This document shows positions 10,511 to 20,755 of a stretch of DNA of 64,000 nt, piece by piece. Source of the stretch: Nitrospirota bacterium (GTDB lineage Bacteria > Nitrospirota > UBA9217); the NCBI GenBank assembly GCA_963751455.1, contig CAVVUN010000015.1, positions 1,120,001 through 1,184,000 on the forward strand. Direction: 5' to 3'. How positions within the stretch are numbered: the first letter of the stretch is position 1; each line of letters begins with the position of its first letter. Both the position numbers and the translations under genes were made by a program. The notes below the pieces were generated by a model. The model ran no database searches and was not told the DNA's origin. It saw nothing but the letters and a program-made list of their open reading frames with translations.

Positions 10511-10604
10511 GTGGTTTACCCCGTTAGAGAAAGCTGTGATCTTTTCAAGGCAGCTAATACTTCGTGAATTGATGCACTGACGGATTCATGCTTCGATCCG
10601 GTTT

Positions 10605-10990: not shown

Positions 10991-11049
<59 letters not shown>

Positions 11050-11066
<17 letters not shown>

Positions 11067-11567
11067 AAATAAAACAAAGCTGGTCATTCTTGACCGGCTT
11101 TTTTTATTTCAGGAAGGGGATCGAACCAAAGGGAGTTTGAGGGAAAGGATTTCACTCATGTTTCGGGAGAGGCCACGAGAGGGCAGGCCCTTTCGTGAAG
11201 CGAAGCGCGTGAGATTCCCCTTCTCGTCCACCAAAATAAAACAAAGCTGGTCATTCCTGACCGGCTTTTTTTATCTCAGGAAGGGGATCGAACCAAAGGG
11301 AGTTTGAGGGAAAGGATTTCACTCATGTTTCGGGAGAGGCCACGAGAGGGCAGGCCCTTTCGTGAAGCGAAGCGCGAGAGATTCCCCTTCTCGTCCACCA
11401 AAATAAAACAAAGCTGGTCATTCTTGACCGGCTTTTTTATTTTCATGAGAGGCGATCGAACCAAGGGAATTTGAGGGAAAGGATTTCACTCATGTTTCGG
11501 GAGAGGCCACGAGAGGGCAGGCCCTTTCGTGAAGCGAAGCGCGTGAGATTCCCCTTCTCGTCCACCA
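11050..11567 (+). repeat. Three 167-bp tRNA-linked tandem repeats
   Basis: ccccttctcgtccacca (tRNA 3' end) at 11050, 11217, 11384, 11551; intervening ~150 bp nearly identical. Confidence 0.95.
11078..11106 (+). terminator. Intrinsic terminator after tRNA (repeated in each 167-bp unit)
   Basis: agctggtca-ttct-tgaccggct followed by T-run. Confidence 0.75.
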
Positions 11568-11972
11568 TAATTTCTTCCTGACAACTTCAAAAACATCCGC
11601 CTCGCGCAAAGCCGCAAAGTTTATAAACCTTAAATCAGTATTAACCATGGATGAACACGGATATTTCCGAACTGATTCGTCTCACACGGACGTACCGATT
11701 GACATAAAAATAGTTGTGTAAAGTATAAATAGAAATTACTTTACACAAACTCTGTTGTGTCGGCTTGCCCATTATGATGGCATATTGTACGGCGTTCCTA
11801 ATCCCGAAGTAAAGAAAAGGACATTGAACTGGCTGAACGCCGAATGGAAGAATGGATGCGGAGGCATCCGTCGGTTTGACCATTTTTTCTGCAACATCTA
11901 GAAAGGCGAGGTAAATCCATCTGCGAGCAATATAAATGTTGACTTTGTGATTTCTCGTATATAAAATAAGCC

Positions 11973-13214
11973 ATGCCCATTCGAAGAAATTTACTGAAAG
12001 AGCTTCAAGCTCATCTTCCCAAGAAAGAGATGACCCTGCTGGTCGGCCCGCGTCAGGCCGGGAAAACGACCCTGATGCTGCATCTCCAGGACGACCTGCG
12101 GAACAAAGGGGAGAAGACGCTCTTCCTGAGCCTTGATTACGAGCGGGACCAGCCGCATTTCGCGGATCAGGAGGCGCTGCTCTCCCGGCTGCGCCTGGAG
12201 TTCGGCCGCAAAAAGGGGTATGTGTTCATCGACGAGATACAGAGAAAGGAGAACGCCGGAATCTTTCTCAAGGGCCTGTACGACATGCGGACGCCGTACA
12301 AGTTCATCCTCTCCGGCTCCGGAAGCGTTGAATTAAAGGAAAAGGTGCACGAGTCCCTCGCAGGCAGAAAGAGGATGTTCGAGCTTTCCACGGTCACGCT
12401 CGCGGAGTTCGTCAACTACCGGACTGCGTACAAGTATCAGGACAGGCTTGCGGACTATTTCCGTGTGAACAAGGCCGAGGCGCGGGATCTTCTGATGGAA
12501 TATCTGAACTTCGGAGGTTACCCGCGGGTGGTGCTTGAGGATACCGCGAAGGAGAAATCGGCGATCATCGACGAAATCTACCGGAGCTACATTGAAAAGG
12601 ACATCGCCTTCCTGCTGCGCGTGGAGCGGATCGACGCGTTCGGAAATCTGATACGCATGCTCGCGGACCGGATCGGCGGCATGACCAACCTGAATGAGCT
12701 TTCTTCGACTCTGGGGATCTCCGTGCAGACCGTGAAGAACTATCTGTCCTATGCGGAAAAGACCTTCATCATCAGAAGGGTCACGCCCTGGTTCAAGAAC
12801 CTGAGAAGCGAGATCAGCAAATCACCGGTGATGTATTTTGGCGACCTCGGGCTCCGGAACTTCGCGCTTCGGCGGTTCGGCAGACACACGGCGCTGCACG
12901 AGACCGGGTTCCTGTTTCAAAACCTTATTCATCAACTGCTTTATGAGAAGACGCAGGAGGAGGGCGGCACGGTCCACTTCTGGAGGACGAAAGACAAGGC
13001 GGAGGTGGATTTCATCATCAATAGCGATGACGGCGTGATCCCCGTGGAGGTGAAATGCCGGGAGATGAAGAGCGGGGAGATCGGCCGCTCGCTCCGGGGC
13101 TTCATCGCGAAGTACAAGCCGAAGGAAGCGTGGGTCGTGTCGCTGGGAAGGCATGAAGACGAGAAGCTGGAAAAAACACGGGTGCGGTTCCTTCCGTTTT
13201 ATGAGTTGCTGTGA
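11973..13214 (+). CDS. AAA_14 ATPase with DUF4143 / C-terminal PD-(D/E)XK-like domain
   Basis: GPRQAGKTT, FIDEIQ, SGS..ESLAGR, FGGYP, YFGDLG, FWRTKDKAEVDF...PVEVK. Confidence 0.9.
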   Translation: MPIRRNLLKELQAHLPKKEMTLLVGPRQAGKTTLMLHLQDDLRNKGEKTLFLSLDYERDQPHFADQEALLSRLRLEFGRKKGYVFIDEIQRKENAGIFLKGLYDMRTPYKFILSGSGSVELKEKVHESLAGRKRMFELSTVTLAEFVNYRTAYKYQDRLADYFRVNKAEARDLLMEYLNFGGYPRVVLEDTAKEKSAIIDEIYRSYIEKDIAFLLRVERIDAFGNLIRMLADRIGGMTNLNELSSTLGISVQTVKNYLSYAEKTFIIRRVTPWFKNLRSEISKSPVMYFGDLGLRNFALRRFGRHTALHETGFLFQNLIHQLLYEKTQEEGGTVHFWRTKDKAEVDFIINSDDGVIPVEVKCREMKSGEIGRSLRGFIAKYKPKEAWVVSLGRHEDEKLEKTRVRFLPFYELL

Positions 13215-13272
13215 CATTGCAAGGTCTCTTCTGGACTTTTTTGGCTGCTTGTAGTAAAGTGCTGAAATACTT

Positions 13273-13806
13273 GCCCCGTTAGAGAATCGTTTTTATTATC
13301 AATGAGATTGCGCATTTGTAAATGGTCGCGAAGACAATTCCTGACCGGGAAACTCGTGATCTCTAACGGGGTGAAGGATTAATAGAAGTCGGGGAGGATC
13401 ATGGCTGATTTACCCCGCTTAGAGGTCCCTTTTACCGTGAATTAGTAGGCGTCAGTCATTCTTGGCGGATAGATCGATCGTAATTGAGAGAGGGGCGGTT
13501 TCTTGACCTCTAACGGGGTTTAGAAACAATCCAGAAAAAGATCCTCTCATTTACCCCGATAGAGATTTTTGCCCGTGCCATAGTGGAGCCGATACCATCG
13601 AAAGCGTACGACTGCGTTCGTTTGCCTATCAAGAAAAGACCGTTGAATCTCACACGGGTGAACGGAACGAGCGTGATTGGCAGCAATTCCACGATCCTTC
13701 ACCCCGTTAGAGATAGCGGCGCAAACACAACGGGTGCATAATCGGCATCGATAGCAAGGATAACGTATATCCGTCACATCAAGCAGGTCTGAATCTCTAA
13801 CGGGGT
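13273..13806. mobile_element. Four 100-108-bp elements with ACCCCGTTAGAG/CTCTAACGGGGT inverted ends (13273-13372, 13412-13519, 13553-13659, 13701-13806)
   Basis: Each opens with (g/a)ccccg(t/ct/a)tagag and closes with ctctaacggggt (degenerate ctcacacgggt in the third); interiors dissimilar. Confidence 0.85.
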
Positions 13807-13825
13807 TAACCCCTACAACGAGACG

Positions 13826-14100
13826 ATGCGTATGTACTATACGTATGTTTTGCAGAGCACAAAAGACGGTAAATGGTATACGGGATTTACAGGGGATCTA
13901 CAAAAACGCTTCAGCGATCACAACGCAGGTAAAGTTCCCGTAACCAAGAACCGTGGACCGTTCGAGTTTATTACGAGGCATGCTTGCACGAGCAAGATGC
14001 TACGGCGCGGGAGAAATACTTGAAGTCGGGGATGGGCAAGCGGTATGTGAGGAATCGGCTGAAGCGTTTTTTTATGGACAAGCCCTCTTTACCCCGTTAG
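13826..14100 (+). pseudogene. Small GIY-YIG nuclease, frameshifted near 13968
   Basis: MYYTYVLQS..DGKWYTGFTGDLQKRFSDHN...TKNRGPFE, continuing in another frame YYEACLHEQDATAREKYLKSGMGKRYVRNRLKRFF...; stop TAG lies inside the downstream repeat. Confidence 0.85.
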
Positions 14101-14194
14101 AACATAATTAATCTCTAACGGGGCAAGCCTTGCAGTCCCGCAATCTCTCGCCTGATTTACCCCGTTACAGATTGTTCATCATCTGTAATGGGGA
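14091..14194. mobile_element. Two short (34 and 36 bp) members of the ACCCCGTT IR family
   Basis: accccgttagaacataattaatctctaacggggc (14091-14124); accccgttacagattgttcatcatctgtaatgggga (14159-14194). Confidence 0.8.
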
Positions 14195-14386
14195 GAACTC
14201 ACTAAGTGAAAAGAACTGGCCGACATTTTCATCTTCCTCACCTATCTAAGCGAGGAATACAATATCGATTTATTGAATGAGGTCGAAAAGAAAATCGGCT
14301 TGAACGAATCGAAATACCCTGTGGAAAAGGCTAAAGGCTCGTCGAGGAAATACACTGAATTGTGATTGATATCTACTGAGGTTTTT

Positions 14387-17300
14387 ATGAGTACTGAACT
14401 GCCAATACAGGTCGGTCAACTGGTCACAGGCCCTCTTTTCAATGAGCCCATGCGGGTGGAGACAGTTCGCTCTGATGGTGCTCAGATGTGGGTTCTCGGC
14501 CTCGTTGGTGAAAAAACCCACCAATTCCGCCGCGTCACACTTACCGGATCAGATCTGAAACAGCTCATCATTCTCGATTCGATGCCGAAGTACGATGGCG
14601 ACGGTGAACTCGTGCGCCTCGGGCTACAAGCTTATTTTCTCGGCATTGCCTATGAATTCGATCCTTATTTCGGCCTCTCCATCTCTCGTGTTGATCCGCT
14701 TCCGCACCAGCTTGAAGCTGTCTATGACTACCTGCTGAAACTAGCCAGAGTTCGGTTTCTCCTTGCCGATGACGCCGGTGCAGGAAAGACCATCATGGCT
14801 GGGCTTCTCATCCGAGAGCTTAAGCTAAGGGGCTTAGCAGAGCGTATTCTTATCGTTTGTCCGTCCAACCTAACTTTTCAATGGGAACGGGAACTCAAAG
14901 ACAAGTTTGAAGAACGGTTCAAGAGAATCGTGGGTGCTGATCTCAACTCCTACAGCATGAATCAGTGGATTGAGAACAAGCAAATCATCACATCTCTTGA
15001 TCTCGCTAAGAGGGAACAGACTTTGCCGGGACTCCGGCAGGCTGAATGGGACCTGGTTATCGTAGACGAGGCGCACCGTATGTCTGCCTCTGATCCCGAA
15101 CATCGGACACAGCGCTACAGGCTTGGCGAACTGCTTCGCGATACTTCGTCACATATTCTGCTGTTGACCGCTACACCTCACAAGGGTGATCCCGAGAATT
15201 TCACCTTCTTCCTTCAGCTTCTTGATCAGGATGCCTTTGCGGATGTCCGCTCGATCCGTGAGGCAATGGACAAGCGAAGGGCACCGTTCTACCTTCGCCG
15301 GACCAAAGAGGCAATGGTTTATTTTCCTGAGCGCCAGGATGACGGCACGTGGATCGCACGGAAGATATTCACCCGTCGTATTCCGCATACAGTACAGTTC
15401 TCAATCGACGGTCCCGAAGATCAGCTCTACCGGGATGTGACCCGCTACGTCAAGCAGCAGAGCGCACAGGCCGCGGCAAATGGCGAGGATCCGCGCGCTC
15501 GTGCTATCGGTTTCTTAATGTCCCTCTATCAGCGTCGTCTAGCCTCAAGTACCTATGCAATGCGCCACTCCCTGGAGAACCGTATAAAGAGACTTAGGGA
15601 CAACCTTCAGCGCGCACAGGAATTGGCCAAAACAGCACCTCCTGATATGCCGACTGACGAGGAACTTGAGGAAATGGAGGATGCCGAGCGTGTGAAGCTG
15701 GAAGATGTAATTGAAGCATTAACACTCTCACGAAATGCGAAAGAAGTCCAAGAGGAAGTAGCTCAGCTTACTGAACTTGCACATCAGGCAAAGATTGTGG
15801 AGGAATCTGGTACAGAAGCGAAACTGTCCAGATTCAAGGATCTTCTTCAGACAGAGGGGTTCTTCGACCATCCGGACAAGCGGCTGCTGCTTTTTACTGA
15901 GTTCAAGGACACGCTGGAATATCTGGTCTCGTGCCTCAAGACCTGGGGTTTCCGCGTCGGATTCATCCACGGAGGTATGAAGCCTGGCAGCAGGAACGAG
16001 CCAGGTTCCAGGCTTTTTGCAGAAGCCCAGTTCTGGGCAGGTGATACGCAAATTCTGGTGGCAACGGAAGCGGCAGGTGAGGGCATCAACCTGCATTGCT
16101 GCAATATGCTGTTCAACTATGATATTCCCTGGAACCCGAACAGGCTTGAGCAGCGCATGGGCCGGATCCATCGTTATGGCCAAAAGAAGGATTGCCTCAT
16201 CTTCAATTTTGTCGCGGCAAATACGATTGAAGGCCGCGTGCTGCAAAAACTGCATGAAAAGCTGCAAGAGATAAGGGACGCCCTAGATGACGACGCCGTT
16301 TTTAATGTTGTCGGAGAAATTCTGCCGTCGTCGCACCTTGAACGGGTGCTCCGGGATTATTACGCTGGCGAGCTTGGTGAAGAGGATCTGGAAGATCGCA
16401 TACTTAAAGACGTAAAGGAAGACAAGTTCAGAGCAATCTGCCAAAATGCCCTTGAAGGGCTCGCTTCAAAGAAACTTAACCTGAACATGCTCGTGGAGCG
16501 TCGGGCGCTTGCGCAGGAGCGGCGGGTTGTTCCCGAGACCATAGCAAGGTTTATCAAGGAGTCATCTGGGAGAATTCCGTTTAATTTAAAACCGGTATCC
16601 GGGATGCTTCACGCCTACGAACCGTCCACAACACCACCTGTACTTCGCCGGTTTGAAATGGAGCCTGACTGGAAGCTGGCGTCTATCGCAAACAGGTATC
16701 CGCGATTCTCGACAGATAGAAAGACAGCAGAGGAAAATAATCTCGAATGGGTCACTCCCGGCCATCCTTTATTTGAAGCGCTTCGTCGTCATTCTCTTAA
16801 TCTGGCAAGAGAGGTTTTCAATCAAGGTGCATGTTTCCATTCAATCAGCCATGATAAACCCGCCCGCTTGGACTTCTATCGCGCCCGCGCCGTGGACGGT
16901 CTCGGCCAGGTGATACACGAGCGTTTGTTCGCAATCCAAATAGCCGACAGCGAAGAACCGAAACTGTTCGATCCCGGTGTGCTGGGGAATCTCCAGGCCC
17001 ACAGCGCCTCCCGATGAACTGCCTAACATCGCCTATCTTCCTGAACCGTCTACCTGGTTTCATGAACATGCTCTGCGCCCCTTCATGGATGAAGTGGGAA
17101 TTGAGCGTCGCGCTGAAGTAGATCGCATTTCGCGCCATGTGGAAATATCTCTCACTGAGCTGATCCATAAGGCGGATGAACTGATTGGCAGGTTTGCCGA
17201 ATCTGCCGAACGGGGCGACGAAGGGGCCAAGGGACTTCTGGCCCAAGCAGAGGCGCGTCACCATGAATTGCTTTATCGCCGTGAAAAGAGAAGGCAGGAA

Positions 17301-17813
17301 CTGGAACGACAGAGGGCACTCAGTCTTCAGGCCGTTGACCGGATCGCGAGCGTGTTGATCCTTCCACATCCGGAGCGGGAAAAACCCGAGATGAGAAGGC
17401 TTCAGCCTGATGCGGCCGTAGAAGCGACCGCAATGCGAGTCGTGATTGAGTACGAGCAGAAGCAAGGCCGACAAGTATTCGACGTGCATGAAAAAAACCT
17501 CGGCTATGATGTGACGAGTCTCGACATCAATTCGGGAGAACTCAGGCTGATCGAGATTAAGGGCCTGGGAGCGGAGACAGGAAATATTCTTCTTACTCCG
17601 AACGAGCGCAGGGTCGCAGAAGATCGACGGGATTGTTACTACCTCTATGTTGTGACCGACTGCAACAAGGAACCGCAATTGCAGGAACCGATTAAAGACC
17701 CGGCAAGGTTCCCTTGGCATGAGGTGAAGAAAGTACAACATTATTGGCTGGAAGTGAATGCCATGACGAAGCCGATGCAAGTAAAAGAGGAACAAAAACC
17801 ATATGGCAGCTGA
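14387..17813 (+). CDS. SNF2-family helicase with C-terminal DUF3883 (PD-(D/E)XK-like) domain; frameshift near 16995
   Basis: PLPHQ, LADDAGAGKT, VDEAH, LTATPH, ATEAAGEGINL, WNPNRLEQRMGRIHRYGQ; second frame VEATAM...GYDVTS...LIEIKG. Confidence 0.9.
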
Positions 17814-18636
17814 GCACATTACCGCTCATTACGAAAATGCAATTGTAACATTTATTGATATTTTGGGATTTCGTGACATTGTACTGAATTCATCATGTAC
17901 TGATGTTGAAAGCATCCTTGAGCGGATTGAGTATTTTACCGATGCTGGAGAGCGCGATCCGGACTATGCACATTTTTCAATTGATCCCGCTGTTTACACA
18001 TTCTCTGATTCGATAATCCGCATTCGCCCAATTGAACGATATGGGAACCGTCACTATCCTGTTGGTTTACTTTTTCATGAACTTCTTGACTTGGTTCATG
18101 TGCAAGGGGGATTGTCCTATAACGGCATTCTTTTGAGGGGGGCGGTTTCATATGGATCGATTAGGATTACCGATACGCGTGTCTTTGGTCCAGCACTTAT
18201 AAGAGCGTACGAACTCGAAAAGAACTGTGCTCTTTATCCACGCATAATTATAGACCCTGAGCTCATAAGTGAGTTCCAGCGCAACCGACTATTAAGAAAT
18301 GAAATACATTCTCTCGAAGAGGAAACTCGTTATATATCAAACGTTACATCGCACAGCGATGATGGCTTCGTTTTCGTAGATTATCTCAGGGCAATGGAGT
18401 CTGAGAGCGATCCTGTGTCTTACCCTAGTTTCCTGTCAAGTCACAGAGATGTAATTATTCAACGTGCACAGGGTCATCAACTTCCGCAGAATATTGCGCA
18501 AAAGGTAATGTGGCTTGCAAGATACCATAATTCCATCATAACAGCGCTGCCGGACGAATTTTATGAACACCATCAGTTTGACAAAGATAGGTTGCTAATA
18601 ACACAAGGTGATATCGGGAATCTCGTGCAAATATGA
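17803..18636 (+). CDS. Class III nucleotidyl-cyclase-like protein
   Basis: AIVTFIDILGF, FSDSII, LLRGAVSYG, GPALIRAYELE, YPRIIID pattern with two conserved Asp. Confidence 0.6.
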   Translation: MAAEHITAHYENAIVTFIDILGFRDIVLNSSCTDVESILERIEYFTDAGERDPDYAHFSIDPAVYTFSDSIIRIRPIERYGNRHYPVGLLFHELLDLVHVQGGLSYNGILLRGAVSYGSIRITDTRVFGPALIRAYELEKNCALYPRIIIDPELISEFQRNRLLRNEIHSLEEETRYISNVTSHSDDGFVFVDYLRAMESESDPVSYPSFLSSHRDVIIQRAQGHQLPQNIAQKVMWLARYHNSIITALPDEFYEHHQFDKDRLLITQGDIGNLVQI

Positions 18637-18679
18637 TGCAGTGAATAGCTTTGCGTTGTTACATCAGGAAGGATACTAA

Positions 18680-20755
18680 ATGCCGATTACAGATCGTCAG
18701 CGGGCATTAGCGCAGGAACGTCAATGGGCAGCTGCACGGGACACATCGCCACAAGTACGCTTAGTCGCTGGCCCAGGGACCGGGAAATCGCATACGATTG
18801 AAAAAAGAATCGCTGACTTGTTGACGGGCGGTATTCCTGCAGAAAATATATATGCGATATCGTTTACTCGCGCTGCCTGTGCGGAGCTCAGTGGCAGGGT
18901 GCAGCTTTTTTGCAGCACGCTATCATGTGCAGACGTTGCTTCAGGCGTCAGAATTTCAACGATGCATTCTCTTGCGCTTCGTATTTTGCGAAGAGCAAAT
19001 TTACTTACTTCATATCCTAGCACGCCTATGATGCTTGACAACTGGGAGCAGAGCACAATATATGACCGGGAGCTCGCCAGTAGTATCGGTTGTTCTCCTT
19101 CGCGGGCGGGTGAGATTCGTCGTGCATATGACGCTCACTGGCAAACCCTTAATCCAGACTATTTGAACCAAGCACGAATAACAACCGCCGAAATTACTGG
19201 CTTCAGAGCATTTCACGCTGCCAGAACGAATCTTTATTGTTGCGTCCTGCCGGGAGAAGTTATATTCAAATGTGTGGATGCCCTTCAGCATGGTGCCCTT
19301 CAGCAGGATCAACTACCACGAATAGATCATTTGATCGTTGATGAATATCAGGATCTGAATGCTTGCGATCAGGAATTCGTCCGACTGCTCTGCTCCCAGG
19401 GCACGATTCTATTTATTGCTGGCGACGATGACCAAAGCATTTATTCCTTCAGACATGCTAATCCAGAAGGAATAATTACCTTCCCGATCACATATCCTCA
19501 GTCATCAACGCACATATTAACAGATTGTTTTCGCTGCACGCCTGCGGTTTTGGCACCAGCAAATCGTCTTATAACATTCAATCCAAGTCGCGTGCCCAAG
19601 CAACTTGACGCTCTTTACGGGACGGCAGAACCACCCGTTGCGGGACAAGTCGCGGTGTGGTCTTTTTCGACAGCACAGCAGGAGGCGCAGGCTATAGCAA
19701 AGTCATGCAAAGAACTGCTTGACGCCGGTTTGTCGGGTAGAGAAAACGAGATTCTAATACTGGTAGCGAATCGAAGGGTACAGTTGAATCTTATTACACA
19801 AGAGCTGGGAAATCTTGGTTTACCTTACGAGCCGCCTAAAGACGCAAGTTTGACGGGGTATGCGTCGATCCGAGTTATCTACTCTATATTACGTCTTGTC
19901 CGCGAGCAAGCAACGGGGGAGGCAGATTATCCTGCTTATCGTGATGTCTTGGAATTGTTGCACGGTGTAGGCCAAGCAACGGCAAAGTCAATTGCCGATG
20001 ATTGCATAACGCACAATCAAAACTATCGAGATTTATATCATTTACAATCGGCACCTCGTTGGCTTGCCGGCCGTGCCTCCGCCGCCGTTCAGCGGGTTAT
20101 ATCAATTGTACAGGCTGTTAGTTCTTGGGTTATGTCCGATACATTATCAGCCCGTTCTGCCGATATGGAATACGTTCTCCGGTCACTGGTTTTCACGACA
20201 GGAGGACAAGCGACAACTGCCATAGCAGAATGGAATACCCTTTCTGGAGCACTTCCACAGGAAATGACTCTCGAAGAACTACTCCAATTTCTGTCCGCTG
20301 ATACAGAGACTGAACAGCAGGCTATTCTTGATATCGTCTCTCAGCGAATAGGAACAGCCTCGCAAGCAGCAGAATCTAATTCTCACACGCCTGGTCAGAA
20401 GAAGATTAGAATATTAACTATGCACGGTGCAAAAGGTCTAAGTGGAAAGATTGTCTTTATTCCTTCAGCAGAACAGGGGATTATGCCCAATTCAGCTGCA
20501 TTACAGGCAACGGGCCTTCTTATTGAGCAACGACGTCTTTTTTATGTATCGTTAACGCGAGCAATGGCATGCTGTATCATATCGCACGCTGCGCAACATA
20601 CGGGTGCTGCGGCTATGACCCTCGCACAGCGATCTTCTGTGCGGTTACCAAGATCACAGTTTTTGAGTGAGATGGGTGTAACCAGTGTTAACAGGGCAGT
20701 AGGATTAAGTCAGGCGGAAGCATCAAGGATCATAATTGATGTAAACAATCTTTAA
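18680..20755 (+). CDS. UvrD/Rep/PcrA-like SF1 helicase
   Basis: AGPGTGKS, ISFT, STMHS, IVDEYQD, GDDDQSIYSFR, FRC, TMHGAKGL, EQRRLFYVSLTRA. Confidence 0.92.
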   Translation: MPITDRQRALAQERQWAAARDTSPQVRLVAGPGTGKSHTIEKRIADLLTGGIPAENIYAISFTRAACAELSGRVQLFCSTLSCADVASGVRISTMHSLALRILRRANLLTSYPSTPMMLDNWEQSTIYDRELASSIGCSPSRAGEIRRAYDAHWQTLNPDYLNQARITTAEITGFRAFHAARTNLYCCVLPGEVIFKCVDALQHGALQQDQLPRIDHLIVDEYQDLNACDQEFVRLLCSQGTILFIAGDDDQSIYSFRHANPEGIITFPITYPQSSTHILTDCFRCTPAVLAPANRLITFNPSRVPKQLDALYGTAEPPVAGQVAVWSFSTAQQEAQAIAKSCKELLDAGLSGRENEILILVANRRVQLNLITQELGNLGLPYEPPKDASLTGYASIRVIYSILRLVREQATGEADYPAYRDVLELLHGVGQATAKSIADDCITHNQNYRDLYHLQSAPRWLAGRASAAVQRVISIVQAVSSWVMSDTLSARSADMEYVLRSLVFTTGGQATTAIAEWNTLSGALPQEMTLEELLQFLSADTETEQQAILDIVSQRIGTASQAAESNSHTPGQKKIRILTMHGAKGLSGKIVFIPSAEQGIMPNSAALQATGLLIEQRRLFYVSLTRAMACCIISHAAQHTGAAAMTLAQRSSVRLPRSQFLSEMGVTSVNRAVGLSQAEASRIIIDVNNL

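Follow-up and report, generated by a model that had tools for sequence, protein, structure and literature searches.

A cassette of 278 bp in which a single gene for an 86-amino-acid GIY-YIG nuclease is enclosed between 13-bp inverted ends (intact unit at locus L118) is likely a very small and widespread mobile element, because it is found as an intact unit and because its sites occur empty in related genomes. In the window, i.e., the 64-kb stretch of DNA analysed here, a decayed copy of this cassette lies together with six paired gene-less ("empty") elements in and around the remains of a MazG-like gene (Table 1). The elements have ends CCCCGTTAGAG…CTCTAACGGGG and span positions 13274-14193, which bears out the claim of the initial annotation that six elements with inverted ends lie within ca. 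920 bp. The 12-mer at their ends, searched with up to two mismatches, is matched 14 times in the window versus 3.35 expected, a count reached by none of 100 shuffles, and nine of these 14 matches fall into the cluster. A single left end belonging to this family, for which no partner was found nearby, lies at 10518-10530. Across the window's genome (G000, of which the window is C15:1120001-1184000), a relaxed search rule gave 17 element pairs, two of which are nested look-alikes, as well as a second, truncated cassette start at C15:1716401, and no intact copy of the nuclease was detected there.

Table 1. Empty elements, cassette remains and pieces of the MazG-like gene in the window.
Feature	Position	Strand	Size	Remarks
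Empty element 1	13274..13371		98 bp	5' of MazG-like start; flanks CTTG / TGAA
Shine-Dalgarno and MazG-like codons 1-4	13391..13412	+		Shine-Dalgarno at 13391, ATG at 13401
Empty element 2	13413..13518		106 bp	Left end with one additional base
MazG-like codons 5-14	13523..13552	+		From comparison with intact alleles
Empty element 3	13554..13658		105 bp	Variant ends; flanks TTTA / TGAA in place of 3 host bases
MazG-like codons 15-26	13663..13697	+		35 nt identical to an uninterrupted stretch in L104
Empty element 4	13702..13805		104 bp	At left end of nuclease cassette
Decayed GIY-YIG cassette	13810..14072	+		Left end (13810-13831) damaged; nuclease gene starting at 13832; right end lost
Empty element 5	14092..14123		32-bp hairpin	At deletion removing cassette right end and approximately host codons 27-50
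MazG-like codons 51-57	14133..14155	+		From comparison with intact alleles
Empty element 6	14160..14193		34-bp hairpin	Both arms with a mirrored change; flanks TTTA / AGAA
MazG-like codons 66-115 and stop	14213..14365	+		PF12643 above cut-off

The DNA between the elements indeed derives from a MazG-like gene, as had been proposed, with 82 of 115 host residues recoverable and 71 of these 82 shared with the intact homologue P0036. Its C-terminal piece passes the Pfam cut-off for PF12643 with 32 bits, matches 734 of 1011 candidates and is 74-90% identical to the best 120 homologues listed, and the predicted Shine-Dalgarno sequence is in place ahead of an ATG. Codons 58-65 are scrambled in addition to the deletion around element 5, and ca. 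33 of the 115 codons are lost or scrambled. The notion that the elements have shredded this gene holds for five of them, which split it, but not for element 1, which lies upstream of the start codon. In relatives (L086-L115), the 115-amino-acid MazG-like gene is multi-copy, with up to six matches per genome, and often truncated without any elements. The broken gene lies in an island following a tRNA (11973-20755) that looks like a defence island and carries few annotations, among them an AAA_14/DUF4143 ATPase, an SNF2 helicase in two overlapping frames (14366-17017 and 16977-17813, the latter with NOV_C), a 277-amino-acid protein and a UvrD helicase. Further upstream (10991-11571), a tRNA-Ala (CGC) precedes 3.1 copies, arranged in tandem, of a 167-bp unit in which the 3' end of the tRNA recurs, and this tRNA-Ala is the sole Rfam match above cut-off between 10000 and 15000. 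The array may represent a second nuclease-linked repeat family, given that a GIY-YIG gene of another clade stands in frame with tRNA-Ala-like text at L249 and L250.

The region 13701-14124 had been taken for the autonomous unit, but the anatomy of intact cassettes in homologues resolves it into two separate empty elements, 4 and 5, that flank a dead cassette. Among the loci examined, cassettes measure 274-287 bp, with a single 336-bp copy that carries a nested element; their left end lies 16-29 bp before the start codon, and their right end coincides with the last four codons of the gene. In line with the suggestion that intact copies would end in S-L-T-G, they end in L-T-G, and SLTG, the translation of the cassette right end, is the consensus ending of 33 close homologues. 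P0001 begins as the N-terminus of a MazG-like protein and continues, via the left end, as the nuclease. The nuclease gene of the window still scores above the PF01541 cut-off (E 6e-10) and is 90-94% identical to the intact copies in L007, L118 and L119, and, compared with L007, it lacks 4 bp after 13968, a deletion by which the frame is shifted and E62 is lost. Its first frame stops at 14023, and the idea that its stop codon is supplied by the repeat applies only to the post-frameshift frame, which ends inside element 5; in intact cassettes, the stop codon lies just outside the right end.

The postulated tight link between this GIY-YIG family and the inverted ends extends far beyond the window. 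Our family scans returned at least 565 relatives in genomes and at least 510 in metagenomes, and among the best 79 of the former and the best 80 of the latter, the gene is hugged by both ends at 67 and 77 loci, respectively, compared to a background of 18 in 5050 windows for just one end. Since these loci were picked by protein similarity, they cannot show other contents between such ends. Cassette records are labelled as Nitrospirota, Thermodesulfobacteriota, Patescibacteria, Planctomycetota, Omnitrophota, Elusimicrobiota and others, and searches of viral contigs found no relative, those of plasmids no match and those of phages one match of 37%. At weaker GIY-YIG matches (L249-L274), the ends do not hug the gene. 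The protein of L248 is divergent and has likewise divergent ends that are still mirrored.

Several lines of evidence point to a cassette that folds as a single strand. The terminal arms change together, with 42 of 45 deviations at the outer base and 42 of 47 at the inner base mirrored in the opposite arm, and a second 13-bp stem was found within the coding sequence, where codons 24-28 pair with codons 78-82 and adjoin the terminal stem. An unguided scan of 70 cassettes below 90% identity (out of 97 gap-free ones) recovered the terminal and internal stems as its five top covarying column pairs, though kinship inflates such covariation counts. Across both stems of 35 cassettes, 97.9% of 910 cells are paired versus 29-53% in slid controls, and seven of the 13 pairs of the internal stem show two-sided changes, which none of 500 shuffles reached. 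It is because of this second covarying stem inside the gene that we consider the cassette to fold as a single strand. The rarity of G-T pairs (22, next to 14 A-C, among the 910) would fit a DNA stem better than an RNA stem. Compared to synonymous shuffles, the predicted folding of whole genes shows a modest effect (z between +1.3 and -3.6 for 12 cassettes), and elements 1, 5 and 6 of the window have predicted folds with z -3.3, -5.6 and -5.4, respectively.

The encoded protein is a genuine member of the GIY-YIG superfamily by its match to PF01541, its conserved Tyr/Arg/His/Glu residues (Y16, R26, H30 and E62, invariant in 33 homologues) and its fold, and 1612 synonymous versus 491 non-synonymous single-base codon differences indicate purifying selection. 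The structure model (pLDDT 93.6) has HIGLE (Z 7.5, rmsd 4.0 over 86 residues) and Slx1 (Z 7.2, rmsd 3.8 over 85 residues) as its nearest folds, where a Z below 8 may reflect nothing beyond a common fold. The best sequence and Foldseek matches are UPF0213 (YhbQ) / Slx1-like proteins (PDB 1zg2 and 1ywl). To the best of our knowledge, no strand-transfer chemistry has been described for GIY-YIG enzymes.

Signs of mobility are found at the junctions of cassettes and empty elements alike. With the element boundary set at NCCCG…CGGGN, 4-bp duplications flank 24 of 70 genome cassettes (shuffled 7.5, maximum 15), 11 of 77 metagenome cassettes (shuffled 3.0, maximum 8) and 37 of 89 empty elements (shuffled 10.8, maximum 21), counts that are inflated by kinship and, for the 89 elements, come from a sample partly picked by length pattern from which duplicate loci were removed. 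Element 2 of the window has a perfect duplication of TTTA. Most junctions are not clean duplications, and 3-11 host bases are replaced among those listed; 25 of the 89 empty elements have TTYA on the left and TRAA on the right, by which the stem is extended, and a single one has the reverse. Many Patescibacteria records show the cassette at ATGAA with ATGAA rebuilt on its right side. Tandem and nested copies exist, including tandem cassettes with one shared 4-mer at L191 and insertions into the cassette's own ends. The local pile-up of empty elements that had been suspected from the window is evident across 159 cassette loci, with a density of 22.5 empty elements per 100 kb at distances of up to 250 bp from a cassette versus 2.5 at 2-3 kb, a 9-fold difference that includes a few fragments of broken cassettes on the near side and could also arise from shared hot-spot genes. 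At L120-L186, L247 and L248, cassettes and empty elements recur at a few sites in accessory genes that we take, from peptide motifs, to be ORF6N-like and four-helix-bundle-like.

The initial annotation regarded the empty elements as progeny of the cassette, which is not supported in the sense of internal deletions: when the interiors of the ca. 100-bp elements were compared to the cassette by profile, no similarity was detected. In the same test, the idea that these elements are cassettes minus the inner stem failed as well, with 62 interiors matching no better than shuffles, and only three clear cassette fragments were found among elements. With the inner stem formed, 80 columns remain as an open loop, which equals the interior size of the common 100-110-bp empty elements; as their interiors are not detectably cassette-derived, we read this match as a possible size preference. 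Four candidate elements of 134 bp were false calls on an internal look-alike. An origin of the interiors from captured host DNA was also rejected, with 18 of 46 having any match and nearly all of these matches falling on other elements, on cassettes or on a different repeat family. Many copies that are nearly identical exist of elements of 28-39 bp. The 100-110-bp subfamily (L214-L245) has three internal hairpins and many copies in several genomes, some with a nested element, and is present in G000 at C2:489589, C6:129034 and C15:218698.

We think it somewhat probable that the GIY-YIG nuclease drives a hairpin-based, mostly local mobility of the cassette and of gene-less elements, although the role of the enzyme as mobiliser is one that we infer from sequence comparisons. 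The element would extrude as a single-stranded stem, and the second stem would fold away ca. 175 nt of the cassette to leave an open loop of ca. 80 nt as in the 100-110-bp elements. The Slx1-like nuclease would then nick at the foot of the stem, and host repair or replication would join the copy into a nearby TTYA/TRAA-like site, so that the site ends up either duplicated over 4 bp or with its flank altered in a way that lengthens the stem. If this action is mostly in cis, empty elements would accumulate around a cassette until it is destroyed, as at the window, and recombination may additionally carry filled sites from allele to allele of accessory genes that are widely exchanged. Going one step further, we would give about even chances to the cassette being a new class of autonomous insertion sequence with the 86-residue GIY-YIG protein as its sole element-encoded factor, in which a self-folded strand is transposed, with its coding sequence serving at the same time for recognition, and gene-less elements are bred alongside until host gene and cassette are both destroyed.

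Alternatively, the ends could mark a non-autonomous element that a HUH (IS200/RAYT-like) or DDE transposase of the host mobilises in trans, with the GIY-YIG gene as a TnpB-like persistence cargo, an account that we consider unlikely. Among 201 genomes of the phylum, many of them incomplete or kin, 16 have at least five exact ends, and 13 of these 16 lack the gene, so a simple correlation of gene and motif across genomes is not supported, with a strong family member in three of 16 motif-rich genomes versus one of 185 others. The structured 100-110-bp subfamily (19 of 62 clustered interiors) is likewise present in several gene-less genomes, and a set of 60 relatives gave no match to P0002 and short elements in nine. 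G000 is, moreover, rich in enzymes that could act in trans, with 33 Y1/HUH, 25 DDE_Tnp_1, 22 rve and 15 tyrosine-recombinase matches, while inside the window no profile match to Y1/HUH, IS4/5-type DDE, rve-type DDE or tyrosine recombinases was found, as the initial annotation had noted. Against trans-mobilisation of a cargo gene, none of the transposase or recombinase matches of G000 is bracketed by these ends (one of the 33 Y1 matches lies ca. 290 bp from the element at C15:218698), and no DDE or other transposase-sized frame was found between paired ends in G000 or in 16 retrieved regions. The multi-copy insertion sequences of G000 do not have these ends. It further speaks against this account that the ends vary with the protein clade, as at L248, that the right end is coding sequence, and that empty elements crowd near cassettes.

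The alleles of the interrupted MazG-like gene form a series in which the same cassette is accompanied by one empty element in L119, one in L118, five in L007 and six in the window. At L119, the cassette follows codon 26, and L118 has element 3 and the cassette. In L007, elements 3 and 4 and an intact nuclease gene are accompanied by three more elements, of which one lies upstream, one inside the right end of the cassette and one at codon 33. The upstream element of L007 is related to element 1 and sits at the matching site with 65% interior identity; the site is empty in intact MazG-like alleles, as is that of element 2, which is empty in L007 as well. Element 3 is common to the window, L007 and L118 in its site and variant ends, with interiors 60-70% identical, and the same site is occupied by a whole cassette at P0001. 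Element 4 is common to the window and L007 (85% interior identity) and absent in L118 and L119, and the site of element 6 is empty in L007. Empty sites are present in homologues, and contigs from all four public sequencing runs compared have an empty cassette site; no RNA run was among the matches listed (shares 0.05-0.06), and the contigs that fall on the window come from relatives. Hypermutation of the interiors was not established: those of element 3 differ by 30-40% and four-fold sites of the nuclease gene by 10-28%, and element 4 differs by 15% versus 24% at four-fold sites.

This series also bears on whether the nuclease acts as a homing-like nickase, with filled sites reaching empty alleles by recombination and new sites arising rarely through hairpin-driven replication errors, which we hold to be improbable. 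L118, L119 and L007 indeed share the same irregular cassette junction with three host bases replaced on host C-terminal parts that are 72-83% identical, like those of intact paralogues, and this combination, resting on few informative bases, suggests that filled sites spread by recombination too. The short host pieces of each interrupted copy match different intact alleles with 0-2 differences in three of four cases, and the few sites that recur in the presumably ORF6N-like genes would also be expected of a homing-like process. Against such a process speak the many unrelated target sites, the exact duplication of rare 4-mers, the existence of cassettes in tandem and of elements inserted in cassette ends, rank correlations for allele linkage that are not significant and the property of homing enzymes, as described in the parts of PMC1564403 considered here, that they do not recognise their own element. 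A MazG-like gene that still works, through excision of the elements at the DNA or RNA level or through translational bypass, is highly improbable despite host pieces no more diverged than intact paralogues (88-94% versus mean 92% identity) and the much greater divergence of element 3 interiors, given the lost and scrambled codons, junctions without a single frame-restoring rule and an intact paralogue in G000 at C6:9361-9705.

Should the nuclease be the mobiliser, the cassette would be a bacterial insertion sequence of less than 300 bp that is driven by an enzyme class for which our literature search found no precedent in prokaryotic DNA transposition, and it would account for a widespread source of gene disruption and unusual protein termini among uncultured bacteria. 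A published guess that GIY-YIG genes and hairpins form mobile pairs would become directly testable, and a defined substrate with two covarying stems, a TTYA/TRAA-like 4-mer target and catalytic mutants provide the basis for such tests. The MazG-like locus itself is a natural time series of an element ruining a gene.

No published description of this GIY-YIG/inverted-end cassette family was found in a search that covered the main texts of papers and few subscription journals. Integron cassettes have a complete attC between R'' and R' boxes, and such an identity was rejected, as what separates a right end from the left end that follows it is either coding sequence of the host or a 4-mer. The homing profile TIGR01453 gives 19.8 of 56 bits, far below its cut-off. 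Like DDE-type insertion sequences and their MITEs, the cassette family has terminal inverted repeats, 4-bp target duplications, gene-bearing and gene-less forms and insertions at its own ends; it differs in that no DDE gene was found between ends (in G000 and 16 regions), that elements of 24-39 bp move, that arms and internal stem covary and that the interiors of most empty elements did not arise from the cassette by deletion. IS200/IS605 and REP-RAYT systems use a small HUH Y1 enzyme that recognises single-stranded hairpins and tetranucleotide targets, and their gene-less repeats accumulate. To our knowledge, IS200/IS605 make no 4-bp duplications, unlike the cassette family, in which these are common. 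The cassette family resembles these systems in its small enzyme, hairpins, short targets and accumulating gene-less repeats (PMC11893778), and covariation and folding support a hairpin at its ends; it differs in that its enzyme is GIY-YIG and its ends are mutually pairing terminal inverted repeats, and a HUH enzyme tied to the repeats was not found in G000.

Slx1-like/UPF0213 (YhbQ) proteins share the minimal single-domain fold of the cassette protein and are described, in the parts of PMC1564403 considered here, as located beside methyltransferases or in fusions and not inside inverted repeats. Non-intron insertions with small GIY-YIG genes in the rRNA genes of CPR bacteria belong to neither intron class and are not homing-like as described (PMC11270868); compared by description only, they target rRNA, and the term 'inverted repeat' is absent from the main text of that paper. 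Also close to the cassette are the Ssn proteins, stand-alone GIY-YIG enzymes of less than 100 amino acids tied to dispersed hairpin repeats (NTS/SRM) in several phyla (PMC11893778), of which SsnA cuts single-stranded DNA near its own hairpin (Chenal et al. 2025, PMC11893778) and for which the authors proposed, without demonstration, that NTS-ssnA-NTS resembles an insertion sequence. The Ssn repeat is its own hairpin of 20-50 nt beside the gene, whereas the cassette gene lies inside one stem with a coding right arm; neither mobility nor target duplication is shown in the parts of PMC11893778 considered here, while the cassette family has empty sites, duplications and nesting. G000 contains two broken GIY-YIG genes of the SRM-linked clade among different palindromic repeats (L003:1400-1960 and L006:1200-1900), which are themselves split by further repeat families. 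A degenerate SRM motif was found within 300 bp at none of 159 cassette loci and beside four other GIY-YIG genes, whose proteins all fall into a six-row clade (100/98) apart from the cassette proteins in a tree of 53 rows and 89 columns that, built without an SsnA reference, serves as a proxy only. By the tests run, the cassette element is set apart from the Ssn and IS200/RAYT families and, as far as G000 and the 16 retrieved regions show, from the DDE families.
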